Notes: generated from the sequence alone by a model not told the origin. DNA of 64,000 nt from Gemmatimonadota bacterium (GCA_965116475.1 OZ220691.1:1344001-1408000), one strand, 5' to 3'; positions 737-63,666 are shown, numbered from the stretch's first letter. Numbers and translations are program-made.

Positions 737-758
737 GGACGTTCCCGCGGGAACGTCC
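737..758. repeat. 22-bp perfect palindrome GGACGTTCCCGCGGGAACGTCC (dispersed palindrome, copy 1)
   Basis: Read directly. The core CGTTCCCGCGGGAACG recurs at 1699, 26304 and 63585, and at 63637 with one mismatch. Confidence 0.95.
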
Positions 759-774
759 CGGACGCTGAGATCCC

Positions 775-818
775 CGTTGAGACCCCCGTTGAAGACCGCC
801 GTTGAGACCGTGTTGAGA
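775..818 (+). repeat. Four GTTGA(A)GA direct repeats with ~12-13 bp period upstream of the HNH gene
   Basis: cgttgagac / cgttgaagac / cgttgagac / tgttgagat. Confidence 0.8.
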
Positions 819-895
819 TGAAACCCGAACATTTACCGAAGATCGGGGTATGAGTGCGTACCCCCTTTGAACCCTGAGATTCGGATGAGAACGCC

Positions 896-2239
896 ATGCC
901 TGAGACGCCTGACCCTTCCGCCGACCCGACCGCCAACTCGAACGCTGCCGCCTCGCACCCCGCTGCCTTGGCCGGCGACCCCGTGGGCGACGAGATCGCC
1001 GAGCTGTGCGCCCACATCGACGCCGCCCAGTATCGGCTCCTGACGCTGCTGCGCCGCTACGATGAGGAGGAACGCTGGAGCGGGTGGCGCTCCTGCGCCC
1101 ACTGGCTGAACTGGCGCACCGGGATCTCCCTCGGCGGGGCCCGCGAGCGACTGCGGGCGGCCCGCCGCCTCGCCGACCTGCCGCTGACCTCCGCCGAGAT
1201 GGAGAAGGGGCGGCTCTCCTGGTCCAAGGTCCGGGCGCTCACGCGCATGGCCACGGCCGAGAACGAGGCGCGGCTGGTCGAGTTCGCCCTCCACCACACG
1301 GCGAGCCAGGTGGAGCGCTTCGTGCGGGCGGCGAAGAGCGCGGAGGCCGCCATGGCGGCGCCGGACGGGACGTCGGAGATGGCGGCCCGCCGTCACCTGA
1401 CGGTCCGAATGACGGCCGACGGCATGTACGAGGTTCGGGGGCTGCTCATGCCCGAGGTGGGCGCCCTGCTCGTGGAGACGCTGGACGTCACCGTGGACGA
1501 ACTCCACCGGCAGGAGTGCGCCATGGAGCGCGAGGCCGATGCGCCCGCGCCCGCGCCGGCACTCCGGCCGAGTCCGACGGAGCGGCGCCACGACGCGCTC
1601 GGGGCGTGGCTCGAGGAGCGCGCCGAGGCGAGGGCGCAACTGGTGGTCCACACCGTGGCCGGCGGCCCCGAGATCCTGGCCACGGAGGACGGCTCACACG
1701 TTCCCGCGGGAACGTCCCGGCGGCTGGCCTGCGATGCGGAGACCGTGGAGGTGAAGCGCGGGCGGGACGGCTCGGTGCTGGACGTGGGCCGCCGCCAGCG
1801 GACCGTGGGGTGGCGGCTGCGCAAGGCGCTCGACGTCAGGGACGGCGGCTGCCGCTTTCCGGGCTGCGGCTCGCGCTACACGCAGGCCCACCACGCCATC
1901 CCGTGGTCCGAGGGGGGCGAGACGAAGCTCGACAACCTGATCCTCCTGTGCCGGTTCCATCACAGGGCCGTGCACGAGGGCGGCTGGCGGGTCGAGATGG
2001 GGGAGGCTGGCGCGGCGCGCTTCCGCGATCCGGCCGGGCGCGTGGTACCGGCGGTGCCCCCGGTACGCGAGGACGTCAGGGCGCCCCGAACCGCCGATGC
2101 GGGACTCGGGAACTGGCACCGGCAGGAGGGGATCGATCCCTGGACGGCGACCAGCCTCTGGATGGGCGACCCGCTCGACCTCGACTGGGCCCTCTGGGTC
2201 CTCTGGGGACAGTACGAGACCAGGCCGATGGCAGCGTGA
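896..2239 (+). CDS. DUF222 (13E12-repeat-like) domain protein with C-terminal HNH endonuclease
   Basis: N-terminal SCAHWLNWRTG..ARERLRAARRL..LP..GRLSWSKVRAL; RRLACDA; C-terminal RDGGCRFPGC..HHAIPWSEGGETKLDNLILLCRFHH. Confidence 0.93.
   Translation: MPETPDPSADPTANSNAAASHPAALAGDPVGDEIAELCAHIDAAQYRLLTLLRRYDEEERWSGWRSCAHWLNWRTGISLGGARERLRAARRLADLPLTSAEMEKGRLSWSKVRALTRMATAENEARLVEFALHHTASQVERFVRAAKSAEAAMAAPDGTSEMAARRHLTVRMTADGMYEVRGLLMPEVGALLVETLDVTVDELHRQECAMEREADAPAPAPALRPSPTERRHDALGAWLEERAEARAQLVVHTVAGGPEILATEDGSHVPAGTSRRLACDAETVEVKRGRDGSVLDVGRRQRTVGWRLRKALDVRDGGCRFPGCGSRYTQAHHAIPWSEGGETKLDNLILLCRFHHRAVHEGGWRVEMGEAGAARFRDPAGRVVPAVPPVREDVRAPRTADAGLGNWHRQEGIDPWTATSLWMGDPLDLDWALWVLWGQYETRPMAA
1698..1715. 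repeat. 18-bp palindrome ACGTTCCCGCGGGAACGT inside the HNH gene (copy 2)
   Basis: Encodes part of HVPAGTS; 1698-1720 is identical to 739-761 over 23 bp. Confidence 0.95.
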
Positions 2240-2254
2240 CCGATGGCAGCGTGA
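2225..2254 (+). repeat. 15-bp tandem duplication containing the HNH stop codon
   Basis: CCGATGGCAGCGTGA x2. Confidence 0.95.
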
Positions 2255-2281
2255 GGGTCGCCAACGTCCTTGGCAGCTACA

Positions 2282-2408
2282 GTTAGCCGACGCGTAACGA
2301 ACGAGAACGTCGCTTTTCTTTTCTTAGCAGCGCCCCGAGAGGGCGTAAGGAAAAGTTTCTTCGTTAGCCGACGCGTAAGAAAAGAAAATGGAAAAAATCT
2401 TTCTTAGC
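2282..2408. promoter_or_regulatory. AT-rich array of alternating inverted half-sites upstream of Fic gene 1 (putative operator)
   Basis: GTTAGCCGACGCGTAA at 2282-2297 and 2363-2378; TTTTCTTTTCTTA (2314-2326) inverted with TAAGAAAAGAAAA (2376-2388); further half-sites at 2345 and 2400. Confidence 0.6.
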
Positions 2409-2471
2409 GGAGGCGACCGTGAGATTATCAGGCAGATCAAGTGAAGATCAAGACACCGATTCGGGTCAAGA

Positions 2472-3641
2472 ATGAAACGCGAAGCGACGGGGACTTACGA
2501 CGTTACGTTAGCCGGCGGGGAAACCGTACGGGCTTTCATACCCGTAGTCTTGCCACCCTCGCCGGACATCGACCTCCGGGAAGGGCTGAACCAACCGTTC
2601 GAGGCAGCTGCCGCCGCATTGGGGCGACTCGACGCGGTGACCGAGTTCCTTCCGGAGGCCGCTAACTTCGTGTACGGATACGTGCGGAAGGAGGCCGTGC
2701 TCTCGTCCCAGATCGAAGGTACGCAGTCTTCCCTTTCCGACCTCATGCTGCACGAAGCGGGCGGGGCGCCCGGTGTCTTACGGGATGACGTCGTCGAGAC
2801 ATCCAATTACGTCGCCGCATTGTATCACGGACTCCAACGCCTGCGGGACGACAACTTTCCGCTCTCCAATCGCCTCATGCGAGAGATGCATGCCAAGCTT
2901 CTCGCGAGCGGCCGCGGCGCGACGATGACGCCAGGCGAGTTCCGGCGAACGCAGAACTGGATCGGGGGATCGCGTCCCGGCAACGCGGCCTTCGTCCCGC
3001 CGCCGCCGAATCACGTGGAAGAGTGCATGGCGGCGCTCGAGCGGTTCATCCGTGCAACCGACGATGACCTGCCCGCCCTCATCAAGGCCGGGCTCGCGCA
3101 TGTGCAGTTCGAGACGATCCATCCGTTCCTCGACGGAAACGGGAGACTGGGTCGCCTCCTGATCACCTTGATGCTGTGTGATGCCGGACTCCTGCGCGAA
3201 CCCCTTCTGTATCTCAGCCTCTACCTCAAGCAGCATCGGGACACCTACTACGGACTCCTCAACAAAATGCGTCGCACAGGCGACTGGGAGGCCTGGCTGC
3301 ACTTCTTTCTCGAAGGCGTGCGCGAGGTGGCGGAGAGTGCCGTTGCAACTGCCCGATCCGTACTTGACCTCGTTGCGGCCAACCGTGCCCGGATCCAGGA
3401 GGGACGACGGGCCAGTTCAACGCTTCGGGTACACCGTGCGCTGGTGGAACGCCCCGTCGACCGGATCAACGGCATCGCGGAGCGTACGGGCCTTTCCGCG
3501 CCGACAGTCACCGCTTCCCTCAGGCTGCTCCAGGGGCTGGGCCTGGTCAGCGAGGTGACCGGGCGCCAACGGGGCATGATCTTCGCCTACGACAGCTACC
3601 TCGCCGTTCTCCGGGATGGGATGGAGGACCCGCCGGGATAG
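2472..3641 (+). CDS. Fic family protein (N-terminal inhibitory motif, C-terminal HTH)
   Basis: Fic motif HPFLDGNGRLGR; inhibitory SSQIEG; C-terminal HTH-like INGIAERTGLSAPTVTASLRLL. Confidence 0.95.
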   Translation: MKREATGTYDVTLAGGETVRAFIPVVLPPSPDIDLREGLNQPFEAAAAALGRLDAVTEFLPEAANFVYGYVRKEAVLSSQIEGTQSSLSDLMLHEAGGAPGVLRDDVVETSNYVAALYHGLQRLRDDNFPLSNRLMREMHAKLLASGRGATMTPGEFRRTQNWIGGSRPGNAAFVPPPPNHVEECMAALERFIRATDDDLPALIKAGLAHVQFETIHPFLDGNGRLGRLLITLMLCDAGLLREPLLYLSLYLKQHRDTYYGLLNKMRRTGDWEAWLHFFLEGVREVAESAVATARSVLDLVAANRARIQEGRRASSTLRVHRALVERPVDRINGIAERTGLSAPTVTASLRLLQGLGLVSEVTGRQRGMIFAYDSYLAVLRDGMEDPPG

Positions 3642-3688
3642 CTTGGCACAACGCTGGCGCGCATACATGCGCTGACCGCCATCTACCT

Positions 3689-5892: not shown

Positions 5893-5944
5893 GCAGCCTC
5901 TCTATCGAAGAGGATCGGGGTCAACGTGCTCACGCGTCGTGAGG

Positions 5945-7243: not shown

Positions 7244-7290
7244 CGGCTCTCCTCTCCTGCTTTGGTCGGCGCGAGGTCGGACGCCCGCCG

Positions 7291-8832
7291 TCAGTCCGGG
7301 GCCTCCTGGGTCCCCTCGGAGGCTGTCGGCGGGAAACAGGTCGCATAGAGCGCCTCCACCCGCCCCACCTCATCCGGCGTCAATCGTTCGAACTCGCGGG
7401 TGCGCGCCCGCTTCGACAGCGTGCCGCGATTCTGCCGGAGGAACCTGGACAGCAGGTCGATGGTCCGGCCCGGCATGTCCGCGATTTCCTCCTGGACGCG
7501 TCGCGAGAACTCGTCGTACCGCTCCAGATACTCGACTTCGCCGGGAAGATCCCGTGTCACGGTCTCCTCCACGCAGCTATACAGAAACTCTGCCTGGGCC
7601 GTGGCGTCAAAGAACCGGTAGAAGTCACCCGTCTCGTTCAGGACCTCGACGTTGTGTCCACTCGTCGCGCGCCATTCAACCAGGGGCAGGACCCTCGAGG
7701 AGTAGCTCTGGAGAACCTCGCGGTACTCCGAGATCCGTCTGAGCATGGGCACGCTGACCGGAAATACCAGATTCGGCGGATTGTAGCCCGCGCGGGCCAG
7801 GACGTGATGAACCAACCACCGGTGGAGGCGTCCGTTCCCGTCTTCGAAGGGGTGGATGTACACGAACCCGAAAGACAGGGCCGCCGCCAATATGACGGGA
7901 TCGACGGACGTTTCTTCCGCCATCCGGCCATACTCGACCACTCCCTGCATCAGATCCGGCAGGTCTTCCGGGCGTGCACTGATGTGTTCCGGGATCGGGT
8001 GCCGGGTTCGCCGGTCTCGCTCACCGATCCACCCCCCCTCGGTCCGGACTCCGAGTTTGACGAATCTCGGGTCGCCGATCACCAGCGCCTGCAGGCGTTC
8101 CAACTCATCGACATCAAGGTCGCGCTGGCCGGCTTCGCCGATCGCCTGGCCCCAGCGAAGTCCTCGATCCTGCGTCGGCTGCTCACCTTCGATCTGAAAC
8201 GATGCCTGACTGTCTTCGAGGAGCAGAAAGGCCGCGGCGCGCCGGACGATATCCGGGTGGGTCCGTCCAATCGCTTCCCGAGCGTTCTCCCCCAGGCGCA
8301 TATCTACGTAGCGATCAAGTTCAGGGGTCCGTCGGACGAGCGGGCAGAACCGCCTCGTACCGGGCAGGTTATTGCGCACCCGGTGTCGACGTGAGAGGGG
8401 TCCGGTCTCCGATGCGAACTGTCGCTTCGGATCCACGACCGGAACGGCCTTCACCTTCCCGGCGTCGGGAAGATCCAGGCGCGCGTCCAGCAGCCATTCA
8501 TACAGGAACCAGATGCGGCGGGCATAGGCGCCCGTTGGCTTGGCACGCACGATGTGCACGATCTTGCGCGGCTCAATCTGCCTGAAGAGAGCAGCAAGCA
8601 CCCCCAGGCTCACCCCCTCCCATTTCAAGGCGAACTCGAGCTGCCCTCGCAAACTTTCCTCCGGCGCGTGGCTTGGGGAAAGCAGCCGCCACTCGCGTGT
8701 GGAGGCGGGACGATGGCGCTCGGCGATGGCGGCCAGCCGCGGCGGCGGCGGAACTTGAAGGTCGTGCCGGGCCATGAGCGCAGCGTAACCCGCAGGTTGA
8801 CCGGGTTCTGGAGGTCGCCATCGGAAGCTCAT
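7291..8832 (-). CDS. Fic family protein (long type)
   Basis: HPFEDGNGRLHR; SFQIEG inhibitory-like motif; PTGAYARRIWFLYEWL. ATG at 8832 preferred because the ORF extension to 8988 runs through a repeat array. Confidence 0.92.
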   Translation of the reverse strand: MSFRWRPPEPGQPAGYAALMARHDLQVPPPPRLAAIAERHRPASTREWRLLSPSHAPEESLRGQLEFALKWEGVSLGVLAALFRQIEPRKIVHIVRAKPTGAYARRIWFLYEWLLDARLDLPDAGKVKAVPVVDPKRQFASETGPLSRRHRVRNNLPGTRRFCPLVRRTPELDRYVDMRLGENAREAIGRTHPDIVRRAAAFLLLEDSQASFQIEGEQPTQDRGLRWGQAIGEAGQRDLDVDELERLQALVIGDPRFVKLGVRTEGGWIGERDRRTRHPIPEHISARPEDLPDLMQGVVEYGRMAEETSVDPVILAAALSFGFVYIHPFEDGNGRLHRWLVHHVLARAGYNPPNLVFPVSVPMLRRISEYREVLQSYSSRVLPLVEWRATSGHNVEVLNETGDFYRFFDATAQAEFLYSCVEETVTRDLPGEVEYLERYDEFSRRVQEEIADMPGRTIDLLSRFLRQNRGTLSKRARTREFERLTPDEVGRVEALYATCFPPTASEGTQEAPD

Positions 8833-8839
8833 GGGAGAA

Positions 8840-9093
8840 ACCGCATATTCACGGAGTTGCCATTGTCGCAAGAAAACCTTCACTGATCGCCAAAACCTAT
8901 CACGAATCACGTGAAACGCAAGATAATATTCACAATTTTTCCAACGCGGGAGAAAACGATCACGAACCGACCTCAAGGTCATAAACATTTCACAGATTCG
9001 CGAATCGCTTCACAGAGAGCGCTGAACGCCAAGAAACCTTCACGGATTCGCAGATCTCTTCACGGATGAGCGGCAAGCGACAAAAACGCTCAC
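8840..9093. promoter_or_regulatory. Phased direct-repeat array (A-rich run followed by TCAC) upstream of Fic gene 2
   Basis: TCAC starts at 8849, 8880, 8900, 8930, 8960, 8990, 9010, 9040, 9060 and 9090. Confidence 0.7.
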
Positions 9094-9097: not shown

Positions 9098-12000
9098 TCA
9101 GGCGGGCGGCTCCTCCGGCATGGGGACAAGCGCGTTGGGGTGCGTGAAGTGCAGGCCGACGGCGATCCGGCCGGCCATGCTCGACGCGGCCGCGCGGTAG
9201 ACGTCGGCCTGGATCCGGTAGTCGCGGGCCGCGCGCGGCGCCTGCGCGGTCGTGATGTCGTGCGTCTTGAAGTCGATGACGAGCGCGTCCAGTCCCTCTT
9301 GCAGGCCAAGGGCTCCGGCCAGGCGGGACGGCGCGGTGCCGGGGGCCGGGCCGGGGCCGGTGGCGGGGCCGGCGAGCCGCCGGTACAGGTCGAAGGCGCC
9401 GAACCGCCAGTCCCGTGCGCCGAGCAGGTGCGTGAAGGTGAGTTCCTTCCAGTAGTCGCGGCCCAGTTCGCCCTCCGTGTACCAGGCCCACTCCTCGCTC
9501 GCGGCCACGCGGCGGATCTCCTCCTCCAGTTTCGCGCGGTATTCGCTGCCCGGACGGAGCATGGCCTCGAGTTCGGGCTCGTCCAGCGAACCGATGGTCT
9601 CTTCGACGACGCGGGCGATCTCGGCCTCCGCCTCCAGCCGTTCGAGTACGCCGTGGATGATCTGGCCCCGGACCAGGGCCGGGAGCCCCGCCTCCTCCGC
9701 CGAGGTTTCGGGCGCGAAGTGCCAGGGGGCGAGGGCGCCGTGCCTGTACCGGCGCTCCCATTCTTCCGGATCCTCCTCCAGGAGCATGAGTTCGGTCGCA
9801 GAGCGGGTCCAGCGCAGCGGCGGCTCGGGGAGCGGCTGGATCAGCGCCGCCGCGGCCGCCACATCGTACCGGTCCAGCCACGCCAGCGTCGGCGGACGAC
9901 TCGTCGGCGGGACGGCCGGCGCGCCCACGCCGCTCCGCACTTCGGCTTCCCCCTCGGCGAGCCAGTGGTCGTACCCCTTCGCCCCGCCCGTCGGGCCCAC
10001 GACGATCAGGCGGTCGCGGGCCCGCGTCGCCGCCACGTACAGGAGGCGCGCTTCCTCCGCCGTCGCCTCCAGTTCCTCGCGGCGCAGAATCCGGTTGCCC
10101 CGCGCCCCTCGATCGGACGCCTTGAGGCAGAAGAGAGGCCCGAGGTCGGGGTCGGACCAGTACTCGTTCGTGCGCGGGCTCCAGAGCCGCCGGTCGACGC
10201 CGACCAGGAAGACGACCGGCCACTCCAGCCCCTTCGCCTGGTGGATCGTCGACAGCGTGACGACGTCGTCGTCCTTCGAGTAGAGGGGCGCCTGCGGAAG
10301 CCCGATGTCGCGGCTCGTCGAGCGATCCCACACCTCGAAGAAGGTGGAGAGATCGTGCGCGCGATGGGATTCCGCGAAATGAATGAGACTCTGGAGGTTC
10401 GCGAGGATCTCCTCCGCGCCCTCCATGAGCAGCACATGCAAACGGTACCCGGTGCGCTCGAGCAGTTCCTCGATGACCTCGTCGAGCGCGAGCCGCGGCG
10501 CGAGCTGGCGCAGGTCGTCGAGCACCGCGAGCCCCTCCTCCAGCGCGCGGCGCTCGATGGCCGCCAGTTGCGGGTGATCGGGGGCCTCCGGCCATTGCCC
10601 CTCTTCCAGCCATCGCTTCGCCTGGCGCAGGAGCGGCCCACCGCGCTGCAGCAGGCGGATGCGGGCGATCGTCTCGTCGCGGAGCCCCACGAAGGGCGAG
10701 CGGAGGTAGCCGAACGCGCGGATGTCGTCGCGCTCGTTTCCGAGCAGCCGAAGCGCGTTGAGGACATCGAGGATCTCCTGGCGTTCCCCGAGGTGCGTCA
10801 TGCCGGCGACGAAGTAGGGAATGCCGCAGCGCTTGAGCGCCGTCTCGAAGTGCTCGAGGCCGCCGCGGGCGCGGTAGAGGAGGGCGATGTCGCGGAACGC
10901 CAGCGGTCGAAGTTCGCCCGTGTCGGGATCGCGGATTTCGTCGCGGCCCACGGAAGCAAGGATTCGGGAGGCGATGCGGCCGGCCTCGGATTCGCGGCGC
11001 TCGGCCGCGTTCTTCCCCTCCGCCGGGACCCACTCGACACCGGCCTGCTCGTGATCGTCGACGCCCGCCACGAGGTCCGCGTAGTCGATCCGGCTCGGCA
11101 GCCCCTCCTCGGCGAGGGCGTTTCCGGTCTCGTCCATCGAGACGCGGCCGACGACGTTCACGAAATCGACGATCGGGGGGGCGCTGCGGAAGTTCCGCGG
11201 GAGATCGAGGATCTCGCCTTTCTCGCCGAAGTCGTCGGCCACGGCGTTCCAGACGGAGATGTCGGCGCCGCGGAAGCGGTAGATGCTCTGCTTCGGATCT
11301 CCGACGAGGAAGAGCTGGGGACGCTCCGCGTCGCGCCCGATGGCGAAGGCGATGTCGCGCTGCGTGAAGTCGGTGTCCTGGAACTCGTCGATGATGAGCA
11401 TCCGGTAGCGATCCCGGATGGCGGCGAGCGCGGCGGCGCCGTCGGGGCCGAGCAGAAGATCGGCCGCCCCCAGCACAAGGCTGTCGAAGTCGCGCCGGTT
11501 CTCTTCCTGGAGCCAGGCGTCCCAGCGCGTGCGGGCTTCGAGCCCCAGTTCGACGAGCGCCGAACAGATCGCGAGGGCCTCGTCATCCCTGGCGTCGCTT
11601 TCGGGGAACAGGCGCTTCACCGCAGGCAGGTCGAGGCCGGGGCCTTCGGACGCGAACAGGTCGAGCGTGCCGTCGCTGCCCGGCTGCGGGGCCGCCGGGA
11701 GCCATCCCGCGTAGCGCCGCTCCCGCCACCTCAGGTCACGGAGCACATCCCGGACGTGGTCGATCGCGCCCTTGGAGTGCTGCCAGCCGGTGAGCTTCCA
11801 CCGGCGGAGGATCGCCCGGGCCGCGGCGTCTTGGCCTTCGAGCCTGTCGAGCAGGAGCGTCTTGATGAGTTCGTCCTGCTCGGCCCACGCCTCGTCCTCG
11901 TCGAGGATCTCGAAGGTCGGGTCGATCCCCAGGCGCAGCGCGTGTTCGCGGAGCAGCTCGCCGCAGAAGGAGTGGATGGTGCCGACCGACGCGCGGTCGA

Positions 12001-12304
12001 TCTGCCAGCGCAGTTCGTCCGCGCGCGACGAGGCCTCGATCCGCTTCCGGAGCTGCCGCTTGAGATCGTAGGCCGCCTTCTCCGTGAACGTGATGGCGGC
12101 GATCTCGTCCAGCCGGCAGGGCGTCGCGGGCGGCGCCAGCGGCTCCCCCGTCGCCCCGTTCACGCCGAAGGGGAGGCCGAGCCGCCACATGATCTTCCCG
12201 ACCACGGTGGTCGTCTTGCCCGTCCCGGCGTTGGCGACGAGCAGCGTGTCGTCCTCCGAACGGATCGCGCGCACCTGCTCCGGAGTCCACCGGATCTCAG
12301 CCAC
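9098..12304 (-). CDS. addA: AddA-like UvrD helicase with C-terminal PD-(D/E)XK nuclease
   Basis: ANAGTGKT, ITFTEKAA, TIHSFC, IDEFQDT, VGDPKQSIYRFRGAD, NFRS, STIHQAKGLEW, LLYVAATRARD; nuclease FDL..IDFKT..QADVY. Confidence 0.9.
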   Translation of the reverse strand: MAEIRWTPEQVRAIRSEDDTLLVANAGTGKTTTVVGKIMWRLGLPFGVNGATGEPLAPPATPCRLDEIAAITFTEKAAYDLKRQLRKRIEASSRADELRWQIDRASVGTIHSFCGELLREHALRLGIDPTFEILDEDEAWAEQDELIKTLLLDRLEGQDAAARAILRRWKLTGWQHSKGAIDHVRDVLRDLRWRERRYAGWLPAAPQPGSDGTLDLFASEGPGLDLPAVKRLFPESDARDDEALAICSALVELGLEARTRWDAWLQEENRRDFDSLVLGAADLLLGPDGAAALAAIRDRYRMLIIDEFQDTDFTQRDIAFAIGRDAERPQLFLVGDPKQSIYRFRGADISVWNAVADDFGEKGEILDLPRNFRSAPPIVDFVNVVGRVSMDETGNALAEEGLPSRIDYADLVAGVDDHEQAGVEWVPAEGKNAAERRESEAGRIASRILASVGRDEIRDPDTGELRPLAFRDIALLYRARGGLEHFETALKRCGIPYFVAGMTHLGERQEILDVLNALRLLGNERDDIRAFGYLRSPFVGLRDETIARIRLLQRGGPLLRQAKRWLEEGQWPEAPDHPQLAAIERRALEEGLAVLDDLRQLAPRLALDEVIEELLERTGYRLHVLLMEGAEEILANLQSLIHFAESHRAHDLSTFFEVWDRSTSRDIGLPQAPLYSKDDDVVTLSTIHQAKGLEWPVVFLVGVDRRLWSPRTNEYWSDPDLGPLFCLKASDRGARGNRILRREELEATAEEARLLYVAATRARDRLIVVGPTGGAKGYDHWLAEGEAEVRSGVGAPAVPPTSRPPTLAWLDRYDVAAAAALIQPLPEPPLRWTRSATELMLLEEDPEEWERRYRHGALAPWHFAPETSAEEAGLPALVRGQIIHGVLERLEAEAEIARVVEETIGSLDEPELEAMLRPGSEYRAKLEEEIRRVAASEEWAWYTEGELGRDYWKELTFTHLLGARDWRFGAFDLYRRLAGPATGPGPAPGTAPSRLAGALGLQEGLDALVIDFKTHDITTAQAPRAARDYRIQADVYRAAASSMAGRIAVGLHFTHPNALVPMPEEPPA

Positions 12305-15300
12305 CGGCAGCCTCCCCGAAGTCGCCGAAGCGGTGGCCCTCGGTGATTCGGGCGTCGTTGCGGCGGATCTCGAGGGCCGGGTCCCAGGGCTTCCAGCCTC
12401 CCTTCCACGAAGCGACCGCCTCGAAGCAGCCGCTCCGGACGCGGCCGGGAATGGAGAGCGCCATGGCGAGGGCCTTCTCGTACCTCGCTTCGCCGAAGTT
12501 CACCTGACCGCCGTTCTTCGGGTTCCCGGGGTTCCGGATCGACCGGTAACGGCCGGAGCGCATCTCGTAGCCGCGGTCGGCCATGACCTGCGCATAGAGG
12601 ACGCCCTGCAGCGCCGTCGCGTCGTCGAACCAGGTCTTGAAGGGGGGCTTCCCGCTCTTGTAGTCGAGCACGTGGTGGACCCCGGTCCCGTGCCCCGTCC
12701 GGTCGACCCGGTCGATGCTGCCGCGAAGGCGAAGGCGAGACGTCTCCCCCCGCACGTCCTCGCCCTCCACGAACGTTCGATCGTCATCATCCCAGCCGAA
12801 CCGCAACTCGGTGTGGACGGGGCGTTCGCCGTCTTCCGCCAGTTGTTCGAGTTCCCAGGCGACGTAGTCGCGCACCCCCGTCACGATCCCTTCGCGGGTC
12901 TGCTCCCAGAGGGCGGTGACCCCGAGCCACTCGCCCTTCTCCGCGCGTTCGGCGCATACCTCCTCGGAGATCTCCGCGAGACGGCGCGCGGCGGGCCCGG
13001 CCAGGGAGGTCGGGAGCCGGTCCATGAATTCGGCGTAGAAGCGCTCGAGGATCTCGTGCGCCACGCTGCCGAAGGTGAGCGGCGTCGTCTCCTCTTCCGC
13101 CTCCTCCACGCCCTCCAGCCTGAGGAGGCGCTCGATGAGGAACGTGAACGGGGATCGCGCGTAGGCTTCGAGCTGGCCGGCGGACCACGGGTAGTCGTCG
13201 TCGAAGCGGCGGTCCAGTTCCCGCAGCACGTCAGGGTCGCGCAGGCGGCCGTTCCACGGGTTCGGGCGAAAGGCCGGGTGCAGGACATCGGCGTCGCTCG
13301 ACGGCGGCGCGGGGAGGAGGAACCCGGGGTAGCGCTCGAGTCCGGGGCCGCGATGGGTCTCGGCCGCGGCCGCCACGATCGCGCGTGCGAGGCGCCCGCG
13401 GCGGGCCGGCGCGACCCGGGGCCGCTCCGTCGAGTCGGGGCTGCCGAGCGTACGGTGGAGCGAAAAGGCGGCCCGCCGATCCGCTTCGGCCGGCGTCACG
13501 GGCTCCCCGACGTCCGAAGGGCGCCGGACTCTGGGCAGCTCGGCGGCGTCCTCGTGAGAGGGGACCATGAGGGACGGCAGGAGCGGCGTGCCGCCGGCGT
13601 CCGTCGTCCGGTAGGCGATCGAGACCGGGCCCGACTGCTGCGTGACGGCGCGCCACAGCGCTCGTTCGCGGCGGAGCGTCTCGTCCCGGTGCGCGACGGG
13701 CAGCCCGAGCGCGGCGAGGCGGCGGCGCTCGCCGTCGGTGAACACGCCCGTGGCGCCCGCCGTACGCGGGAACTCGCCGTCGTTCGCATGCACCACGAAC
13801 GTGTGGGAGAAGGGGACGAGCGCCGCGTCGTGCGCCTCCAGGACCTGCACGCCCTTCTGGCCGGGCGTGGAGAGCACGAGTTCGTTCGCCTGCAGCAGCT
13901 TCTGGACGAGCGCGTGCCAGCCCGCCGGCGAGAGGGGATCGTCGGGGTGGTCGAGGTCCCGCCATTCCCGCAGGAGTCGTTCGAGGAGGAGGATCCCGCG
14001 CTGGTCGGAGCGCACGACCTCCCACCGTTCCTCGGCGGGGTCGCAGACCCGGCGCCTCAGCCGGAAGACGCCGCGGTCTTCCCTGAGGAGCGTCAGCGTG
14101 AGGTCGATCCAGTCCGCCTCGGGGCGGGACGCGCCCAGCGGCTCAAGCACGTCTCGCAGGGCGGCGAAGGCCTCGATGTCCTTCTCGACGCGATCGGCGA
14201 AGAGCCCGCGGCCCCGGATCTCGCGAGCCCCGTCCTCCACGAGGGCGCGGAGTCGCTCCAGATTCTCGCTCCAGGCGTCGAGTCCCACGACGCGGCGGAG
14301 CGCCGCGATGGCGTCGATGCCGCGGAGATCGACGCGCGTGTCGAAGTAGGGGTGCGCGAGGACGGCCCGCAGCGACCGGTAGTCCCAGTTCCGGCCCGCT
14401 CCCCGCAGGATGAGGAGAAGCGCCCTGAGCGCCGGGACTTCGTCCAGCGGCGTCCGGATTCGGGCCGTCGCGGTGACGCCCGCCCGCCGGAGCGCCCGAT
14501 ATGCGCGGTGTGTGTTCTCGCGCCCGGACCTCGCGACCACGGCGACCTGATGCGGTTCGGCGGTGCCCGCCGCGAGAATCTCCTTGACCTGCCGCGCCAC
14601 CCAGGCCATCTCCCGGGCGGCGTCCGGCACCGGCTGCACGGTCACCGGCCCGGCGCCGGCGCCGCCGCCAAAATCGCCGATCACCTCCGTCCGGGCGGCC
14701 AGCGTATCGAAGAACGGATCCGGTTCGGACTCCAGGGGAAGGTAGAGATGGACCTCAACCTCTTCCTGCCGGGAGAGGGCGGCGAGCATGCGGCGGCGCG
14801 TGCGGGGGCTCGCGATGCTGTACACGTGCAACTCCCGCGCGCCGCCGATCGCCGCCGCCAGCCCGCCCGCCTCGATCCTCTCCGCGATGCGGGCGTTCAC
14901 CGAGCGCCTGTCGAGGAATCCCCGCTTTCGGAGGGAATCGAGGTACGCCCGGTAGACCGCCACCGCCCACTCGTTGCGCTGGCGCGCGAAGTCGTCGCCT
15001 CCCAGCCCGGCCAGCGCCCGCTCCAGTTCGTCGGGCTGAACGCCCTCGGGCAGCAGGTCGCCGAACAGCCGGTCCAGCATGTGCCCCCGGATCACGCCGT
15101 CCCCGCGACCCGGCGCCCGCCCCAGGATCCGGCGCCCCAGCCGCGCCGCGTGCCGGCTCACCAGCCGACGTCGCGTGAGGAGGCCGACGGATTTCTCACG
15201 GATGCCGAAGCGGTCGGTCAACTCCCCGAACAGCGTGACCGGGGGATCGAGCCATCCGGGGTGCCCGCATTCGTGCGCGGCCTCGAACAGGAGATCCCGC

Positions 15301-15440
15301 AGGCTCCGGTGGTTGAGCCAGACCCACGCGCGCGCCCCCGTGCCCGCCTCAGCCGGCGAGGCGGCCTCCGCCAGAAACCGGTCGACGCACCCCTCCCACA
15401 GCGGGGCCGCCGCCGGCGCTCGAACTACGTTGAGAGGCAC
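12297..15440 (-). CDS. addB: AddB-like inactive helicase with C-terminal PD-(D/E)XK nuclease
   Basis: TTG start; SAGQLEAYARSPF, GSVAHEILE, LRGSIDRVD..VLDYKSG..LQGVLY; overlaps the addA start. Confidence 0.85.
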   Translation of the reverse strand: MPLNVVRAPAAAPLWEGCVDRFLAEAASPAEAGTGARAWVWLNHRSLRDLLFEAAHECGHPGWLDPPVTLFGELTDRFGIREKSVGLLTRRRLVSRHAARLGRRILGRAPGRGDGVIRGHMLDRLFGDLLPEGVQPDELERALAGLGGDDFARQRNEWAVAVYRAYLDSLRKRGFLDRRSVNARIAERIEAGGLAAAIGGARELHVYSIASPRTRRRMLAALSRQEEVEVHLYLPLESEPDPFFDTLAARTEVIGDFGGGAGAGPVTVQPVPDAAREMAWVARQVKEILAAGTAEPHQVAVVARSGRENTHRAYRALRRAGVTATARIRTPLDEVPALRALLLILRGAGRNWDYRSLRAVLAHPYFDTRVDLRGIDAIAALRRVVGLDAWSENLERLRALVEDGAREIRGRGLFADRVEKDIEAFAALRDVLEPLGASRPEADWIDLTLTLLREDRGVFRLRRRVCDPAEERWEVVRSDQRGILLLERLLREWRDLDHPDDPLSPAGWHALVQKLLQANELVLSTPGQKGVQVLEAHDAALVPFSHTFVVHANDGEFPRTAGATGVFTDGERRRLAALGLPVAHRDETLRRERALWRAVTQQSGPVSIAYRTTDAGGTPLLPSLMVPSHEDAAELPRVRRPSDVGEPVTPAEADRRAAFSLHRTLGSPDSTERPRVAPARRGRLARAIVAAAAETHRGPGLERYPGFLLPAPPSSDADVLHPAFRPNPWNGRLRDPDVLRELDRRFDDDYPWSAGQLEAYARSPFTFLIERLLRLEGVEEAEEETTPLTFGSVAHEILERFYAEFMDRLPTSLAGPAARRLAEISEEVCAERAEKGEWLGVTALWEQTREGIVTGVRDYVAWELEQLAEDGERPVHTELRFGWDDDDRTFVEGEDVRGETSRLRLRGSIDRVDRTGHGTGVHHVLDYKSGKPPFKTWFDDATALQGVLYAQVMADRGYEMRSGRYRSIRNPGNPKNGGQVNFGEARYEKALAMALSIPGRVRSGCFEAVASWKGGWKPWDPALEIRRNDARITEGHRFGDFGEAAGG

Positions 15441-15594: not shown

Positions 15595-15834
15595 ATGGGC
15601 GCGAGTTCTCACGTTGCGAAATGGGGAAGCAGTCTGGCCGTCCGCATCCCGAAGCCGGTTGCCGAACAATGGGGGATCCACGAAGGCTCCCGCATTGAGA
15701 TGGCGCCGCGTGGCGACAGGCTGGTGATGCGGAAGAAGGTCCATGACTTGGCGGAGATGGTGGCGCGAATCACGCCGGAAACGCTGCATTCCGAGGTGGA
15801 TACCGGTCCGGCCGTGGGCGAGGAAGTGTGGTAG
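15595..15834 (+). CDS. mazE: AbrB/MazE family antitoxin
   Basis: VAKWGSSLAVRIPK, LAEMVARITPETLHSEVDTGPAVGEEVW; AAGGAG RBS before ATG 15595. Confidence 0.93.
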   Translation: MGASSHVAKWGSSLAVRIPKPVAEQWGIHEGSRIEMAPRGDRLVMRKKVHDLAEMVARITPETLHSEVDTGPAVGEEVW

Positions 15835-16175
15835 AAGGTTCTCACGTCCCGGACGGCGGCGATATCGTATGGCTGGCGTTCAACCCGCAAACCGGACACG
15901 AGCAGGCTGGGCGCCGGCCGGCGCTCGTCCTCAGCCCTCGCGCCTACAACGGGAAGTCCGGCTTGGCGCTCGTTTGTCCGATCACATCGAAGGCAAAGGG
16001 TTACCCTTTTGAGGTCGCGCTCCCAGCCAAGGGTCGCGTGACAGGCGTGGTCCTGGCGGACCAGATCAAGAGCCTGGACTGGCGAGCCCGGCGGGCGGCC
16101 TTCGCAGACAGAACGTCGGCTTCAGTGCTGCGCGAGGTACTGGACAAACTGGAGATCCTGCTCGGGCGGCGCTGA
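15828..16175 (+). CDS. mazF: MazF/PemK endoribonuclease toxin
   Basis: GDIVWLAFNPQTGHEQAGRRPALVLSP..YN, CPITS, LADQIKSLDWRAR; overlaps mazE. Confidence 0.95.
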   Translation: MVEGSHVPDGGDIVWLAFNPQTGHEQAGRRPALVLSPRAYNGKSGLALVCPITSKAKGYPFEVALPAKGRVTGVVLADQIKSLDWRARRAAFADRTSASVLREVLDKLEILLGRR

Positions 16176-26303: not shown

Positions 26304-26319
26304 CGTTCCCGCGGGAACG
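26304..26319. repeat. Palindrome CGTTCCCGCGGGAACG (copy 3) between convergent genes
   Basis: Read directly. Confidence 0.95.
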
Positions 26320-26344: not shown

Positions 26345-26749
26345 CTACCAGTACTCGACCTCCAGTCCCTCGACCCGGTGGAAGCTGCGCCGGTCGCGCG
26401 TAGCGACGGCATAACCGTGGTGGACCGCGGTAGCCGCGATGATCAGGTCGTGCGCGCCAATGGGAGCGCCTTGGCGGGCGAGTTGCCCCGCCAGGAGCGC
26501 GTGGACACGAGCGACTTCGAGGTCGAAGGGCAGTGCGGGCAGGACGTCCAGCCACATGTTGGAGGACCGCTCGACCGCCACGCGCCGGGCACCGCGGGCC
26601 GCGTGTACACCCTGGAGGAATTCCGAAACCGTGATGGCGGCCATCGCCAGTGGAGTACCGGTATCCTGCGCGCCGCCGAGGATCCGATCAACGTCCAGTT
26701 CCCCCCGTTCGACGGCGATCAGGACGCTGGCATCGATTAGCGTTCCCAC
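26345..26749 (-). CDS. vapC: PIN-domain VapC toxin
   Basis: LIDASVLI, ITVSEF, IGAHDLIIAATA..VATRD..FHRVEGL. Confidence 0.92.
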   Translation of the reverse strand: MGTLIDASVLIAVERGELDVDRILGGAQDTGTPLAMAAITVSEFLQGVHAARGARRVAVERSSNMWLDVLPALPFDLEVARVHALLAGQLARQGAPIGAHDLIIAATAVHHGYAVATRDRRSFHRVEGLEVEYW

Positions 26750-27042
26750 GGATTCCGGGGTACCTCCTCACGGTTCCAGATCGCGATACCCTCTTCGATG
26801 GCTCGCAGGCACTCCTCATCCAGGGGAGGCCAGGGGCGCTTGGCGACGAGGGCGGCGAACTCCTTCAAGGTGAACGTTCGATCTTCCTCGGGGCCGATCC
26901 GCGCGACAGCTTTGCCGCGGTGTTCCACGACGTACTCGGCGGCCTGCTCACGCACCTCCGTGAGGATCGATCCGAAGTTCTTCGCCGCCTCCGTTGCGCT
27001 CACCCTCCGCGCATCCGGAGACGCATCTCGTGTATTGGGCAT
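26737..27042 (-). CDS. Phd/YefM family antitoxin
   Basis: VSATEAAKNFGSILTEV..YVVEHRGKAVARIGP; overlaps vapC. Confidence 0.88.
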   Translation of the reverse strand: MPNTRDASPDARRVSATEAAKNFGSILTEVREQAAEYVVEHRGKAVARIGPEEDRTFTLKEFAALVAKRPWPPLDEECLRAIEEGIAIWNREEVPRNPWER

Positions 27043-56424: not shown

Positions 56425-56673
<249 letters not shown>

Positions 56674-56879: not shown

Positions 56880-57805
<926 letters not shown>

Positions 57806-57809
<4 letters not shown>

Positions 57810-58927: not shown

Positions 58928-59910
58928 TGGCCGTCCTCACGTATCGGGAAGCGCTGAACGAAGCCCTCCGCGAAGAGATGGAGCGCGACGACTCGACCTT
59001 CATCATCGGCGAGGAGGTGGGGGAATACGACGGCGCCTACAAGGTCACGAAGGGGCTGCTCGACCGGTTCGGGGAATGGCGCGTGCGGGACGCCCCGATC
59101 GCCGAACTGGGGTTCGCGGGGCTCGGCGTGGGGGCGGCGATGGCGGGGCTGCGGCCGATCGTCGAGTTCATGACGTGGAACTTCGCCCTGCTCGCCATCG
59201 ACGAGGTCGTGAACGCGGCGGCGAAGATGTTCCAGATGTCGGGCGGTCAGTACAACGTCCCCATCGTCTTCCGGGGACCGGGCGGCGCGGCGCTCCAGCT
59301 CGCGGCGCAGCACTCGCAGTCGCCGGAGCCGTGGTACAGCTACGCGCCGGGGCTGAAGGTGATCGCGCCCGCCACGGCGAAGGACGCGAAGGGACTCCTG
59401 AAGAGCGCGATCCGCGACGACGACCCCGTCGTCTTCATCGAGAGCGAGATCATGTACAACCTCGTCCGGGATGAAGTGCCGGAGGAGGAATACCTGACCC
59501 CGATCGGCAAGGCCGAGGTGAAGCGGGAGGGGTCGGACGTGACCGTCGTGTGCCACTCGAAGATGGTGCACCAGGCGCTCGCGGCGGCCCGCGCGCTGGA
59601 GAAGGAAGAGATCGACGTGGAGGTGCTGGACCTGCGCACGGTGCGCCCGCTGGACGTGGACGCGGTCGTGGCGTCGGTGAAGAAGACGAACCGGGCCGTG
59701 GTCGCGGAAGAGGGGTGGCCGATGTGCAACATCGGGGCCCAGGTCGTGGACGACATCCAGCGCGAGGCGTTCGACTCGCTGGACGCGCCGGTGGCGCGCG
59801 TGAACGGGCTGGACGTGCCCATGCCCTACGCGAAGAACCTGGAGAAGCTCGTAACCCCCAACGCGGACCATGTGGCGGCGGCGGTGCGCCACGTGTGCTA
59901 CGCGGACTAG
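58927..59910 (+). CDS. pdhB: Pyruvate dehydrogenase E1 beta
   Basis: YREAL, GEEVGEYDGAYKVTKGL, PIAELGF, EFMTWNF, AQHSQ, DVPMPYA. Confidence 0.95.
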   Translation: MAVLTYREALNEALREEMERDDSTFIIGEEVGEYDGAYKVTKGLLDRFGEWRVRDAPIAELGFAGLGVGAAMAGLRPIVEFMTWNFALLAIDEVVNAAAKMFQMSGGQYNVPIVFRGPGGAALQLAAQHSQSPEPWYSYAPGLKVIAPATAKDAKGLLKSAIRDDDPVVFIESEIMYNLVRDEVPEEEYLTPIGKAEVKREGSDVTVVCHSKMVHQALAAARALEKEEIDVEVLDLRTVRPLDVDAVVASVKKTNRAVVAEEGWPMCNIGAQVVDDIQREAFDSLDAPVARVNGLDVPMPYAKNLEKLVTPNADHVAAAVRHVCYAD

Positions 59911-59928
59911 CCCCGGGACCCGACCGAT

Positions 59929-61350: not shown

Positions 61351-61395
61351 TCGGGACTTCCGGAGAACCCGGAGAACCAGAGAGTGAAGGGATAG

Positions 61396-62808
61396 ATGTC
61401 GGAGACATACGACGTCGTCGTAGTCGGGGCCGGACCGGCCGGCTACGTGTGTGCGATCCGGGCGGCGCAACTCGGCCTCCGGACCGCCTGCGTCGAGAGC
61501 GGATCGTACGAGGGCGGCCTCGGCGGCACCTGCCTCAACTGGGGCTGCATCCCCGCCAAGGCGCTGCTCGAGAGCGCCGCGCTCGCGCACAACCTGCAGC
61601 ACCACGGCGCCCGCATGGGCGTGAAGCCCGTCGAAGTGGAGTACGACTTCTCCGCGGCCGTGAAGCGGAGCCGCATCATCACCCGCAAGCTCACGGCCGG
61701 CGTGAAGTACCTGCTCGGGAAGAACAAGGTCGACATCGTGCAGGGCCGCGGCCGGCTGGCCGGAGCGGGCCGCGTCGCGGTCGAGGCGGAGGACGGCGAG
61801 ATCCGGGAGCTCGCGACCCGGAACGTCGTGTTCGCGACCGGGTCCGTGATGAAGACCTTCCCCGGCTTCGAACTCGACGGCGAGAGGGTCATCGGCAGCC
61901 GGGAAGCGCTCGGTCTCCCGGAACTCCCGGCGAAGATGGCGATCGTCGGAGCCGGATTCGTGGGCGTCGAGTTCGCCGACGTCTTCGACGCCTTCGGCGT
62001 GGACGTGACGCTGATCGAGGCGCTCGACACGCTCGTGCCCCTCGAGGACCCGGAGATCGGAAAGGCGCTCGAACGCTCGTTCAAGAAGCGCGGCATCCGC
62101 AATCTCACGAACACCCGCGTCAAGCACCTGGACCGCGACGCGAGCCCGATGGTCCTCACGGTCGTGAACCCGGACGGCAGCGAGACCGCCGAGGAGACGG
62201 ATCTCGTACTCATGGCCGTCGGACGGCGCCCCGTGAGCGAGGATCTCGGCCTCGAGAAGAACGGGGTCGCCGTGGAGGACGGCTTCATCCGGATCGACGA
62301 GTGGTGCCGCACGAACCAGCCGGGCGTCTACGCGATCGGGGACGTGGCCGGGCAGCCGATGCTGGCGCACGTCGGGTCGCACGAGGGCATCGTCGCCGCC
62401 GAGCATATCGCGGGCGTGGCCAGCCACCCGATGACGTACGGGAACATCGCGTCCGTCGGCTACTGCCACCCCGAAGTCGCCTCGATCGGCATGTCCGCGG
62501 CGCAGGCCGAGGAGGCGGGCTACGAGGTCGTCACCGGCAAGTACCCGCTCGGGGCGCACGGGCGCGCGCTGACCGCCGAATCCGCGGACGGGTTCGTGAA
62601 GATCGTGGCGGACGCCAAGTACGGCGAAGTGCTCGGCGTCCACATGATCGGACACAACGTGAGCGAACTCGTGGCGGAGGTCGGCATGGCGCGCGAACTC
62701 GAAGCCACGCTGGACGAACTCGTGCGCCACGCGCACGCGCACCCCAGCATGGCCGAGGCGGTGATGGAGGCCGCGTTCGCCGCGCTCGGACGCTCGATCC
62801 ACATGTGA
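61396..62808 (+). CDS. lpdA: Dihydrolipoyl dehydrogenase E3
   Basis: GAGPAG, GGTCLNWGCIP, GAGFVGVE, YAIGD, HAHPSMAE. Confidence 0.96.
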   Translation: MSETYDVVVVGAGPAGYVCAIRAAQLGLRTACVESGSYEGGLGGTCLNWGCIPAKALLESAALAHNLQHHGARMGVKPVEVEYDFSAAVKRSRIITRKLTAGVKYLLGKNKVDIVQGRGRLAGAGRVAVEAEDGEIRELATRNVVFATGSVMKTFPGFELDGERVIGSREALGLPELPAKMAIVGAGFVGVEFADVFDAFGVDVTLIEALDTLVPLEDPEIGKALERSFKKRGIRNLTNTRVKHLDRDASPMVLTVVNPDGSETAEETDLVLMAVGRRPVSEDLGLEKNGVAVEDGFIRIDEWCRTNQPGVYAIGDVAGQPMLAHVGSHEGIVAAEHIAGVASHPMTYGNIASVGYCHPEVASIGMSAAQAEEAGYEVVTGKYPLGAHGRALTAESADGFVKIVADAKYGEVLGVHMIGHNVSELVAEVGMARELEATLDELVRHAHAHPSMAEAVMEAAFAALGRSIHM

Positions 62809-63584
62809 GCAGGGAGCGGCAACTCCGGGTGGTCGACCTCGGCCGCCGCGAGTACCGGGAGGTGCTCGAGCTTCAGCGCTCCATCGCCCGCTGGCGGCGG
62901 AACTCTTCGTCGGACCACGACCTCCTGCTCCTCGTCGAACACCTGCCCGTGGTCACCGTCGGGCGGGGATCGAGGGAGGATTTCACGCCCCCCGACCAGG
63001 CGTGGCTCGCCGAGGCGGGGCTGGATCTGGTCGAGATCGAGCGCGGCGGCGACCTCACGTATCACGGCCCCGGCCAGCTCGTGGGCTACCCGATCCTCGA
63101 CCTCCGCGCGCACCGGCAGGACCTCCACTGGTATCTGCGCCGCATCGAGGAGGTGCTGCTGCGCGTGCTCGCGGAGTGCGGCCTTCCCGCGTTTCGGGTC
63201 GCGTCGTACACGGGCGTGTGGACGGGTTCGCCTCCCGCCGGGAGCCTCGACACGGTCGACGACGACGGGTTCGGAACGGTCCCCGCCGAGCGCGCGGACG
63301 CCCTCATCGGAGCCGGCGCGATCCGCAAGGTGGCTTCGATCGGCGTGCACGCGAGCCGCTGGGTCACGTCCCACGGCTTCGCGCTCAACGTGACGCCCGA
63401 GCCCCTCGCGAACTTCCGCGGCATCGTCGCGTGCGGCATCCACGGCGTCCGCATGACGAGCCTCGCCTCCGAGGGCGCCTCCCATACGCTCGAAGAGGCC
63501 GGGGAAGCCGTGGTGCGCGCGTTCCCCGTGGCCTTCCCGAACCTCGCGCCGTCCCACGCGCCGGAAGTCGGCCTGCGCGTCTGA
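62805..63584 (+). CDS. lipB: Lipoyl(octanoyl) transferase
   Basis: VEHLPVVTVGR, RGGDLTYHGPGQLVGYPI, TGVW, KVASIG, HGFALNV, IVACG; GTGA overlap. Confidence 0.95.
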   Translation: MSRERQLRVVDLGRREYREVLELQRSIARWRRNSSSDHDLLLLVEHLPVVTVGRGSREDFTPPDQAWLAEAGLDLVEIERGGDLTYHGPGQLVGYPILDLRAHRQDLHWYLRRIEEVLLRVLAECGLPAFRVASYTGVWTGSPPAGSLDTVDDDGFGTVPAERADALIGAGAIRKVASIGVHASRWVTSHGFALNVTPEPLANFRGIVACGIHGVRMTSLASEGASHTLEEAGEAVVRAFPVAFPNLAPSHAPEVGLRV

Positions 63585-63666
63585 CGTTCCCGCGGGAACG
63601 TTTGGTTCGGCCGGTCGCCCAACTGGCGGGTACGGACGTTCCCGCAGGAACGCGTTGGCGGGAACG
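63584..63666. repeat. Cluster of the dispersed palindrome (copies 4 and 5 plus a half-site)
   Basis: ACGTTCCCGCGGGAACGT 63584-63601; CGTTCCCGCAGGAACG 63637-63652; GCGGGAACG 63658-63666. Confidence 0.92.

Follow-up and report, generated by a model that had tools for sequence, protein, structure and literature searches.

A parS-like palindrome linked to DUF222-HNH genes: candidate cognate site of a putative nuclease with a predicted ParB/Noc DNA-binding fold

DUF222-HNH proteins form a very large family without known function, which includes the mycobacterial 13E12 repeats. Here we analyse one member and the DNA around it in a 64,000-nucleotide stretch from a Gemmatimonadota bacterium (GCA_965116475.1, OZ220691.1:1344001-1408000), called the window below; positions are counted from its first letter. 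The gene encodes a DUF222 region followed by an HNH nuclease domain. A short perfect palindrome recurs upstream of the gene, inside its open reading frame (ORF) and at two other places in the window. A sequence-only reading had proposed that the two belong together, as a protein with a ParB-like helix-turn-helix (HTH) and its cognate site. That interpretation is supported as far as computation goes. Comparison of homologous loci indicates that the palindrome is selected as DNA within the coding sequence and is physically linked to the gene across phyla, and the N-terminal domain of the protein is predicted to have the DNA-binding fold of ParB and Noc.

Results

The gene and its palindromes

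The window has a G+C content of about 70% and carries genes for TonB-dependent receptors amid ordinary metabolic genes. In the DUF222-HNH protein, Pfam DUF222 (PF02720) matches residues 38-316 with 91.6 bits, against a cut-off of 24.4. Pfam HNH (PF01844) matches residues 319-360 with 34.2 bits, against a cut-off of 21.4. The nearest relatives are named Candidatus Palauibacter (Gemmatimonadota), and 7,534 relatives were found among 8,000 candidates scored.

The 16-mer CGTTCCCGCGGGAACG occurs exactly at 740-755, 1699-1714, 26304-26319 and 63585-63600, and with one mismatch at 63637-63652. When up to two mismatches are allowed, these five are the matches in the window. The expected number is 0.17, and none of 100 shuffled sequences reached five, so the earlier judgement that four exact copies are not chance holds. 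There are no weaker copies in the window; the next best 18-mers carry 4-5 mismatches. The longer forms described from the sequence alone were also right. The upstream copy extends to a perfect 22-mer with arms of 11 bases (737-758), and the copies at 1698-1715 and 63584-63601 are perfect 18-mers. Positions 739-761 and 1698-1720 are identical over 23 bp, and the half-site CGGGAACG is present at 63659-63666.

The upstream copy lies about 140 bp 5' of the HNH start codon, with the HNH gene on one side and a divergent gene on the other. A copy also stands at this position in the homologous loci L001, L002, L003, L005 and L013. The copy at 1699 encodes H-V-P-A-G-T-S-R of the DUF222-HNH protein. The copy at 26304 is flanked by two stop codons, one of a gene with a DMFA2_C domain (26274) and one of a PIN/VapC gene on the opposite strand (26345). 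No second palindrome was found beyond vapBC, on its far side. The 16-mer at 63585 begins one base past the stop codon of lipB and is the first of a doublet, the second member of which begins 52 bp after it. We considered whether the solo sites of the window are remnants of HNH genes. Similarity in blastn and tblastn was confined to the 18-19 bp palindrome, and the idea was rejected. All features are collected in Table 1.

Table 1. Palindromes, genes, domains and control elements of the DUF222-HNH system in the window
Feature	Position	Strand	Remarks
Upstream palindrome GGACGTTCCCGCGGGAACGTCC	737..758		22 bp perfect; left edge of the conserved HNH unit
Four tandem CGTTGAGA-like repeats	772..819	+	Between upstream palindrome and promoter-like box
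Promoter-like box CCGAACATTTACCGAAGATCGGGGTATGAG	824..854	+	TATGAG resembles a -10 element
DUF222-HNH gene, 447 aa	896..2239	+	Pfam DUF222 7.7e-26, HNH 2.9e-08
ParB/Noc DNA-binding-domain-like helical domain, residues 26-158	971..1369	+	AlphaFold2 model, Foldseek
Intragenic palindrome	1698..1715		18 bp perfect; encodes (H)VPAGT; rare codons GTT, GGA
HNH nuclease core, residues 319-360	1850..1975	+	Pfam HNH match
Possible degenerate remnant of a downstream site, GCCAACGTCCTTGGC	2260..2274		Right edge of the conserved unit; weak evidence
Solo palindrome	26304..26319		16 bp perfect; between convergent genes, 26 bp from vapC stop
Solo palindrome, first of doublet	63584..63601		18 bp perfect; directly after lipB stop
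Second member of doublet	63636..63653		1 mismatch in the 16-mer, 2 in the 18-mer
Half-site CGGGAACG	63659..63666		Partial copy

The palindrome is tied to the gene

We compared the best 80 of at least 592 homologous DNA loci, which with the window make 81. The 80 loci span Gemmatimonadota, Acidobacteriota, Gammaproteobacteria, Rokubacteria/Methylomirabilota and others. A gene region was defined as the ORF from -350 to +150. Gene regions, 162 kb in total, contain 82 perfect palindromes of the family, and the flanks, 1,297 kb in total, contain 10; the density is thus about 65 times higher at the gene. This bears out the tie between palindrome and gene that had been proposed for the window. A perfect copy stands in at least one place in 54 of the 81 loci. 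Of the 10 flank copies, one lies inside an HNH gene that the search pattern had missed (L065) and two lie by a second HNH fragment (L047).

Copies other than the main intragenic site occupy a small set of positions. They lie 5' of the promoter-like box in Palauibacter loci (about 95 bp 5' of it), directly after the stop codon, or once more inside the ORF. Those within the ORF are mostly in frame with each other, so that V-S-A-E-T is read two or three times. Where the main site is broken, a perfect copy is often found elsewhere in the gene (L025, L058, L069, L073, L074, L078).

It had been suggested that the sites around a gene match the variant of that gene, and they do. All 25 loci with at least two perfect copies share a single 14-mer among their copies (51 of 51 pairs); between loci, the 14-mer is shared in 32.5% of pairs. 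This uniformity extends to loci that switched variant independently, namely L042 and L062 (CAGCTG centre) and L072 (ATG..CAT flank). The sequence comparison thus argues that the site is physically linked to the gene across phyla.

Searches of plasmid and phage collections gave two distant matches each. One is a DUF222-HNH gene on a Rhodococcus plasmid (L081), which has CGTCCCCGCGGGGACG at 1296-1311, 110 bp upstream. This could be a compensatory variant at the third and twelfth positions; alternatively, it could be the terminator of the preceding gene. At about 1348-1363, before the start, the same locus has a sequence that resembles the mycobacterial SOS box.

The intragenic site is kept as DNA

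The intragenic site lies in a conserved peptide, V-[SP]-A-[EG]-T-S-R-R-L-x-C-D. Among 54 protein homologues the site itself reads VPAGT, VSAET or, rarely, VPAET, and never VSAGT. The codons for Pro/Ser and Gly/Glu fall on palindrome positions 4 and 11. Pro with Gly gives a C:G pair there, and Ser with Glu gives T:A. VSAET homologues carry GTTTCCGCGGAAAC, the compensatory partner of VPAGT with GTTCCCGCGGGAAC, as the sequence-only reading had suggested. GGGAAC goes with Pro/Gly and GGAAAC with Ser/Glu. Further forms leave the peptide unchanged. A synonymous TCA/GCT change gives GTTTCAGCTGAAAC, the centre can be CAGCTG or CTGCAG, and a synonymous CAT/ACA change gives an ATG..CAT flank. GTTTCTGCAGAAAC is a further compensatory variant. 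Synonymous changes do not freely break the palindrome; its positions keep the site or change in pairs. At the main site, 44 of 81 loci have a perfect palindrome of at least 14 bp (43 of at least 16 bp and 23 of at least 18 bp). A single mismatched pair is present in 26 of 81, and 11 of 81 are more degraded.

Covariation was measured across the site. Of all cells, 80.9% are paired; shuffles give 72.6%. Covariation scores 0.229, a value reached by none of 500 shuffles (0.108 when shuffled), and every slid register scores far lower. The scoring admits G-U pairs, which are irrelevant to duplex DNA, and strict complementarity was counted separately. Switches were then counted on a protein tree of the 81 genes, built quickly with IQ-TREE and with warnings on some long branches. 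The central pair, which appears as C:G, A:T, T:A and G:C, requires at least 7 switches on this tree. The change from the Ser/Glu to the Pro/Gly pair requires at least 4 and the outer flanking pair (columns 6 and 21) at least 5. The central pair would sit in the loop of any hairpin and still covaries, which points to a two-fold symmetric duplex site.

Codon usage at the site departs strongly from that in the rest of the genes. Val is encoded by GTT in 68 of 76 cases at the site (7% in the rest), Glu by GAA in 61 of 69 (27%), Gly by GGA in 9 of 12 (12%), Thr by ACG in 70 of 83 (37%) and Ser by TCA in 23 of 51 (7%). Among sites that encode VSAET, 36 of 44 are perfect GTT..AAC palindromes; about 0.5% would be expected from background codons. 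A GTC..GAC palindrome would be just as symmetric and, by codon usage, about 14 times likelier, yet it is unused, so arm sequence matters and not symmetry alone. This codon usage settles that it is the DNA that is selected. Within the reading frame the site is kept both for its sequence and for its two-fold symmetry, at synonymous positions and even by way of paired amino-acid changes.

An intact HNH core and a ParB/Noc-like domain

Nine residues of the HNH domain are invariant in 54 homologues: C319, C324, H332, H333, N347, C352, H355, H356 and H360. Judged by sequence, the core is intact, with the catalytic His/Asn/His and the zinc-binding Cys/His residues present. Among solved structures, the HNH domains of IscB and of a group II intron maturase come closest. 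DUF222 and HNH are the only domains found in the protein, and no Y1 (HUH) transposase domain of the IS200/IS605 type was found in it. PADLOC was also consulted for a role of the HNH protein in a defence system. It gave only marginal matches to restriction-enzyme HNH models (E about 1e-3), and this candidate was dropped.

The full-length AlphaFold2 model is mediocre (predicted local distance difference test, pLDDT, 63), with confident residues at 30-150. A model of residues 26-158, built from an 81-sequence input, reaches a pLDDT of 96.2. When this model was searched against the PDB with Foldseek, ranks 1 to 10 were all ParB, Noc or Spo0J, including 7bnr, 7o0n, 7bnk, 7ng0, 6sdk, 6y93, 7ol9 and 1vz0. 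Probabilities in the top ten are 0.85-1.0, and template modelling (TM) scores normalised to the query are 0.42-0.59. The eight closest superpose with a root-mean-square deviation of 2.3-3.5 A across about 100 columns; for the other two, 1vz0 and 6y93, this value rises to 6.1 and 8.0 A. The DNA-binding domain of KorB ranks 46th. The matches include isolated DNA-binding domains bound to parS or the Noc site, so the shared part is the HTH domain. By this model, the N-terminal DUF222 domain has the ParB/Noc DNA-binding fold, a statement about fold level and not about homology. The proposal of a ParB-like N-terminal HTH therefore stood as fold, with all ten best PDB matches in its favour, and did not stand as a sequence or profile match.

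Other parts of a ParB system were also sought. No ParBc match, and hence no N-terminal ParB/Srx domain that binds cytidine triphosphate (CTP), was found in Pfam at E up to 10, and no more than about 28 residues, of low confidence, stand before the helical domain. Structural look-alikes of the N-terminal domain in the ESM Atlas, with DUF222 and HNH proteins excluded, gave no usable match. A motif scan of the fetched loci for a ParB gene returned spurious ORFs only.

We also asked which residues could read the site variant. At residue 136 (window about 1301-1303), all 30 loci with a CCGCGG centre have Ala, and 23 of the 27 with a CAGCTG or CTGCAG centre have Thr. A wider comparison of the CAGCTG and CCGCGG types for specificity residues was set aside; many columns differ, and the signal comes mostly from one clade.

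Signs of mobility

Paralogues within one genome have about 1.6 kb in common and unrelated flanks. This common unit runs from the promoter-like box through the gene to 20-70 bp past it. OZ242201.1 and OZ244837.1 hold three copies each, and two paralogues among the protein relatives (P0001 and P0040) have the same recorded longest contig, of 3,620,669 bases. Between the window and L001/L002, similarity starts at 726-733, at the upstream palindrome, and ends at 2237-2285. The stretch at 2260-2274 is conserved between the window and L001, and in L003 and L005 the HNH stop codon is closely followed by a palindrome, full or hybrid.

Two loci suggest movement of other DNA. L036 and L040 are syntenic on both sides. 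In L040 a single palindrome stands 11 bp past the HNH stop codon. At the same place L036 has a palindrome, a cassette and a second palindrome (11406-12723). The cassette carries a gene with HTH(XRE) and DUF6922 and an AbiEii-type toxin gene, both absent from L040. Both L036 palindromes are inside 57-bp direct repeats that are 93% identical. Compared in this way, the pair looks like a filled and an empty site. In L025, two palindromes 65 bp apart form a doublet between convergent genes (1043-1125). It aligns with the HNH-internal segment of its clade from palindrome to palindrome only, with unrelated flanks. From these alignments, segments bounded by two palindromes look mobilised. The doublet after lipB (63584-63653) may be a unit comparable to that of L025; no match was found for its spacer.

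Control region and neighbouring genes

Between the upstream palindrome and the HNH gene lie the CGTTGAGA-like repeats, which have a period of about 12-13 bp and are partly conserved in L001 and L002, and the promoter-like box. The box is conserved across Palauibacter loci. A similar box is kept in Longimicrobiales paralogues, the proteins of which are only about 51% identical. Its consensus is CCGAACATTT(A/C)CCGAA..GGGGTAT(G/A)AG, found at 824-854 in the window and at about 9800-9830 in L020, L022 and L024. Possibly it is a promoter, with the direct repeat of CCGAA as a regulator site. The divergent minus-strand ORF (2-832) probably represents a lipoprotein gene that starts at 637 and not at 832, since the periodicity of G+C at third codon positions fades past about 630 and the ATG at 637 opens a lipoprotein-like signal peptide. 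The 195 bases upstream of this start overlap the HNH control region, and there the codon-position G+C signal is lost.

At the other end of the gene, a 15-bp tandem duplication of CCGATGGCAGCGTGA (two copies, 2225-2254) takes in the HNH stop codon. It is followed by a low-G+C stretch at about 2275-2470 with GTTAGCCGACGCGTAA-like repeat words and then by a Fic-family gene (region to 3641), for which the SoFic defence model of PADLOC scores 3e-114. The minus strand has a second gene with a Fic domain (7291-8988). Also on the minus strand is a helicase-nuclease pair of AddAB-like appearance, a UvrD-type helicase (9098-12304) and a PD-(D/E)XK protein (12297-15440), which adjoins a MazF/PemK toxin gene (15828-16175). 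In the window, vapBC (26345-27042) also neighbours a solo palindrome, and SoFic neighbours the HNH gene. Together with AbiEii in L036, these neighbours may hint at a cargo of toxin-antitoxin or defence genes.

Discussion

In the reading that we favour, with a probability of about 0.6, the DUF222-HNH protein has the palindrome as its cognate site, and gene and sites together form a selfish, mobile unit. The protein would be a nuclease with cognate palindromes that uses the recognition module of ParB and parS, as we infer from the site sequences and the predicted fold. In the mechanism that we propose, two protein molecules would bind, one per half-site, through the ParB-like HTH. The HNH domain would then nick or cut at or near the palindrome. 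Repair of the break from DNA bounded by two palindromes would copy the stretch between them into a site with a single palindrome. Such a process would be homing-like and would copy cassettes, the cargo being the gene itself or anything else between two palindromes. A site inside the ORF would guard against recombination that separates site and protein.

This mechanism would account for a gene flanked by palindromes, and for a toxin-antitoxin cassette flanked by them in one genome where a sister genome has a single palindrome. It would also account for small doublets between convergent genes and for solo palindromes like the ones at 26304 and 63585. We regard selection on a duplex site, the linkage of this site to the gene, and the fold as shown, while binding, cutting and copying are inferred.

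Several observations weigh against the favoured reading. Of the 81 loci, 27 have no perfect copy; these may be decaying copies. The asymmetric VPAET persists in several lineages (9 of 81 main sites), and one S/G combination occurs in a partial-looking second copy of L010. Two actinobacterial homologues, from Rhodococcus and Arthrobacter, have no internal palindrome, so it is a feature of a subfamily and not of all DUF222 proteins. The Foldseek E-values to ParB and Noc are weak (0.36-0.6). ParB is absent from Pfam matches at E up to 10 for three pieces of the protein, and from profile searches against PDB sequences with two query proteins. For these reasons we claim a shared fold and not homology. 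No residue tracks the site variant convincingly; residue 136 is concordant in 2-3 of only 4 independent pairs, a number too small for a test. The L025 spacer is identical to the gene segment at only 29-30 of 47 positions, and the L036 repeats differ at 4 of 57, so that both events are old or indirect. Lastly, the palindrome is intact inside the element, unlike classical homing, where the element disrupts its target.

The palindrome could instead be bound by another host protein, such as a chromosomal ParB, a Noc-like paralogue or a repressor. The element would then carry the site for regulation or to hitch-hike on chromosome organisation, and DUF222 would bind something else. The GTTTCA/TGAAAC arms are the same as those of the parS quoted in the sequence-only reading, an upstream copy precedes the promoter-like box by about 95 bp in Palauibacter loci, and solo copies exist away from the gene. 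The variant, however, changes with the element and in all copies of a locus together, which is hard to square with a conserved host factor. The concentration of copies at the gene and the matching fold in the element's own protein argue in the same direction, and we regard a host binder as unlikely. A separate site-specific recombinase, with the palindrome as its attachment or crossover site and the HNH gene merely as its host, is a still weaker candidate. A prophage-like element integrates into mycobacterial REP13E12 repeats. In PMC3381160, 13E12 repeats are described as insertion elements that contain phage attachment sites, and the L036 cassette does lie between two palindrome copies. Against this, integration by a serine or tyrosine recombinase yields hybrid sites and not two intact perfect palindromes. 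No recombinase gene was seen in the L036 cassette or beside the HNH genes examined, in flanks that were not scanned exhaustively. Moreover, compensatory conservation of the site within a single gene family in several phyla suggests that its partner moves together with the gene, and we consider this explanation improbable.

Marginally less probable again is a role in RNA, as an mRNA hairpin for stability, processing or translational pausing, or as a terminator where the copy is intergenic. Perfect palindromes can fold, and the solo copies at 26304 and 63585 are just past stop codons, the usual place of a terminator. A hairpin would not, however, explain why the would-be loop pair covaries, with its 7 switches among complementary states, or why GTT..AAC is fixed against codon bias when GTC..GAC would pair equally well. 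Upstream copies precede the promoter-like box, no run of T follows either solo copy, and no Rfam family matches. It remains to consider that the palindrome is a functionless by-product of a conserved peptide, of codon bias or of gene conversion between copies. The peptide is indeed conserved, and any coding of it is already partly symmetric. The excess of perfect GTT..AAC sites over background codons, the same variant in non-coding copies and the chance expectation for the window leave this explanation scarcely credible.

If the favoured reading is true, the family offers a clear case of a coding sequence shaped by the DNA site for its own product. In four lineages this shaping went as far as paired replacements of Ser/Glu by Pro/Gly. 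It would also add a nuclease-linked branch to the ParB/parS recognition module. A cognate site opens direct experiments on binding, cleavage and mobilisation for DUF222-HNH proteins. A bolder version, which we put forward as speculation that is rather more likely wrong than right, is that the subfamily is an unrecognised autonomous mobile element. It would combine a ParB-like domain and an HNH nuclease, keep a parS-like site in its own ORF and copy palindrome-bounded DNA by break repair. The cargo, in that same tentative version, would be an internal piece of 48 bp, a cassette of toxin-antitoxin or defence genes, or the gene as a whole. Recombination hotspots at mycobacterial 13E12 repeats may have a similar basis.

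Those repeats, REP13E12, are one of the nearest described parallels. They belong to the same Pfam family and, in PMC10589994 and PMC3381160, appear as multicopy units of about 1.4-1.6 kb. Their copies are recombination hotspots, and 13E12/DUF222 is strongly over-represented at inversion breakpoints (PMC13157036). In mycobacteria, 13E12/DUF222 genes belong to those that DNA damage and LexA induce (PMC3381160). PMC10589994 and PMC3592412 mention DUF222/REP13E12 in passing only. The proteins studied here are only distant kin of REP13E12; the actinobacterial homologue compared is 34% identical. Neither a cognate site nor a ParB-like domain was found described for DUF222/REP13E12 in the literature searched, which lacks most subscription journals.

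Repetitive extragenic palindromic (REP) sequences with their RAYT transposases, and REPIN doublets, are a partial parallel. In many loci the nuclease gene has copies of its own short palindrome beside it, with a variant per lineage. Solo copies lie after genes and between convergent genes, and so do doublets, in L025 and at 63584-63653 of the window. The enzyme differs, being an HNH protein with an HTH and not a Y1 HUH transposase. Central-pair covariation points to recognition of a duplex and not of a single-strand hairpin, and one site is inside the ORF. Dispersed copies are also few in the flanks examined, with 10 of 92 perfect copies outside gene regions. No integron-type integrase was found in the L036 cassette or the HNH neighbourhood of the window.

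Free-standing HNH homing endonucleases offer another parallel, an HNH gene that behaves as a selfish mobile unit, and spread by break repair would extend it. Classical homing endonucleases have long asymmetric targets that are disrupted by the element or differ in the host allele. The DUF222-HNH site is symmetric and short, and it is intact both inside and beside the element.

The site itself resembles those of ParB-parS and Noc with its binding site, NBS, being a loopless palindrome of 14-18 bp with GTTTC../..GAAAC arms. Between the CAGCTG variant and the quoted parS only the central pair differs. The predicted fold of the DUF222 N-terminal domain is that of the ParB/Noc DNA-binding domain. 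Unlike ParB, the DUF222-HNH gene is multicopy and sits in varying genomic places, and no similarity was found at the sequence level. In place of the ParB/Srx CTP-binding domain of ParB and Noc, an HNH nuclease is fused to the shared fold. In Bacillus subtilis, a parS site lies inside the parB (spo0J) gene, and the DUF222-HNH palindrome would parallel it as a site within its own gene.

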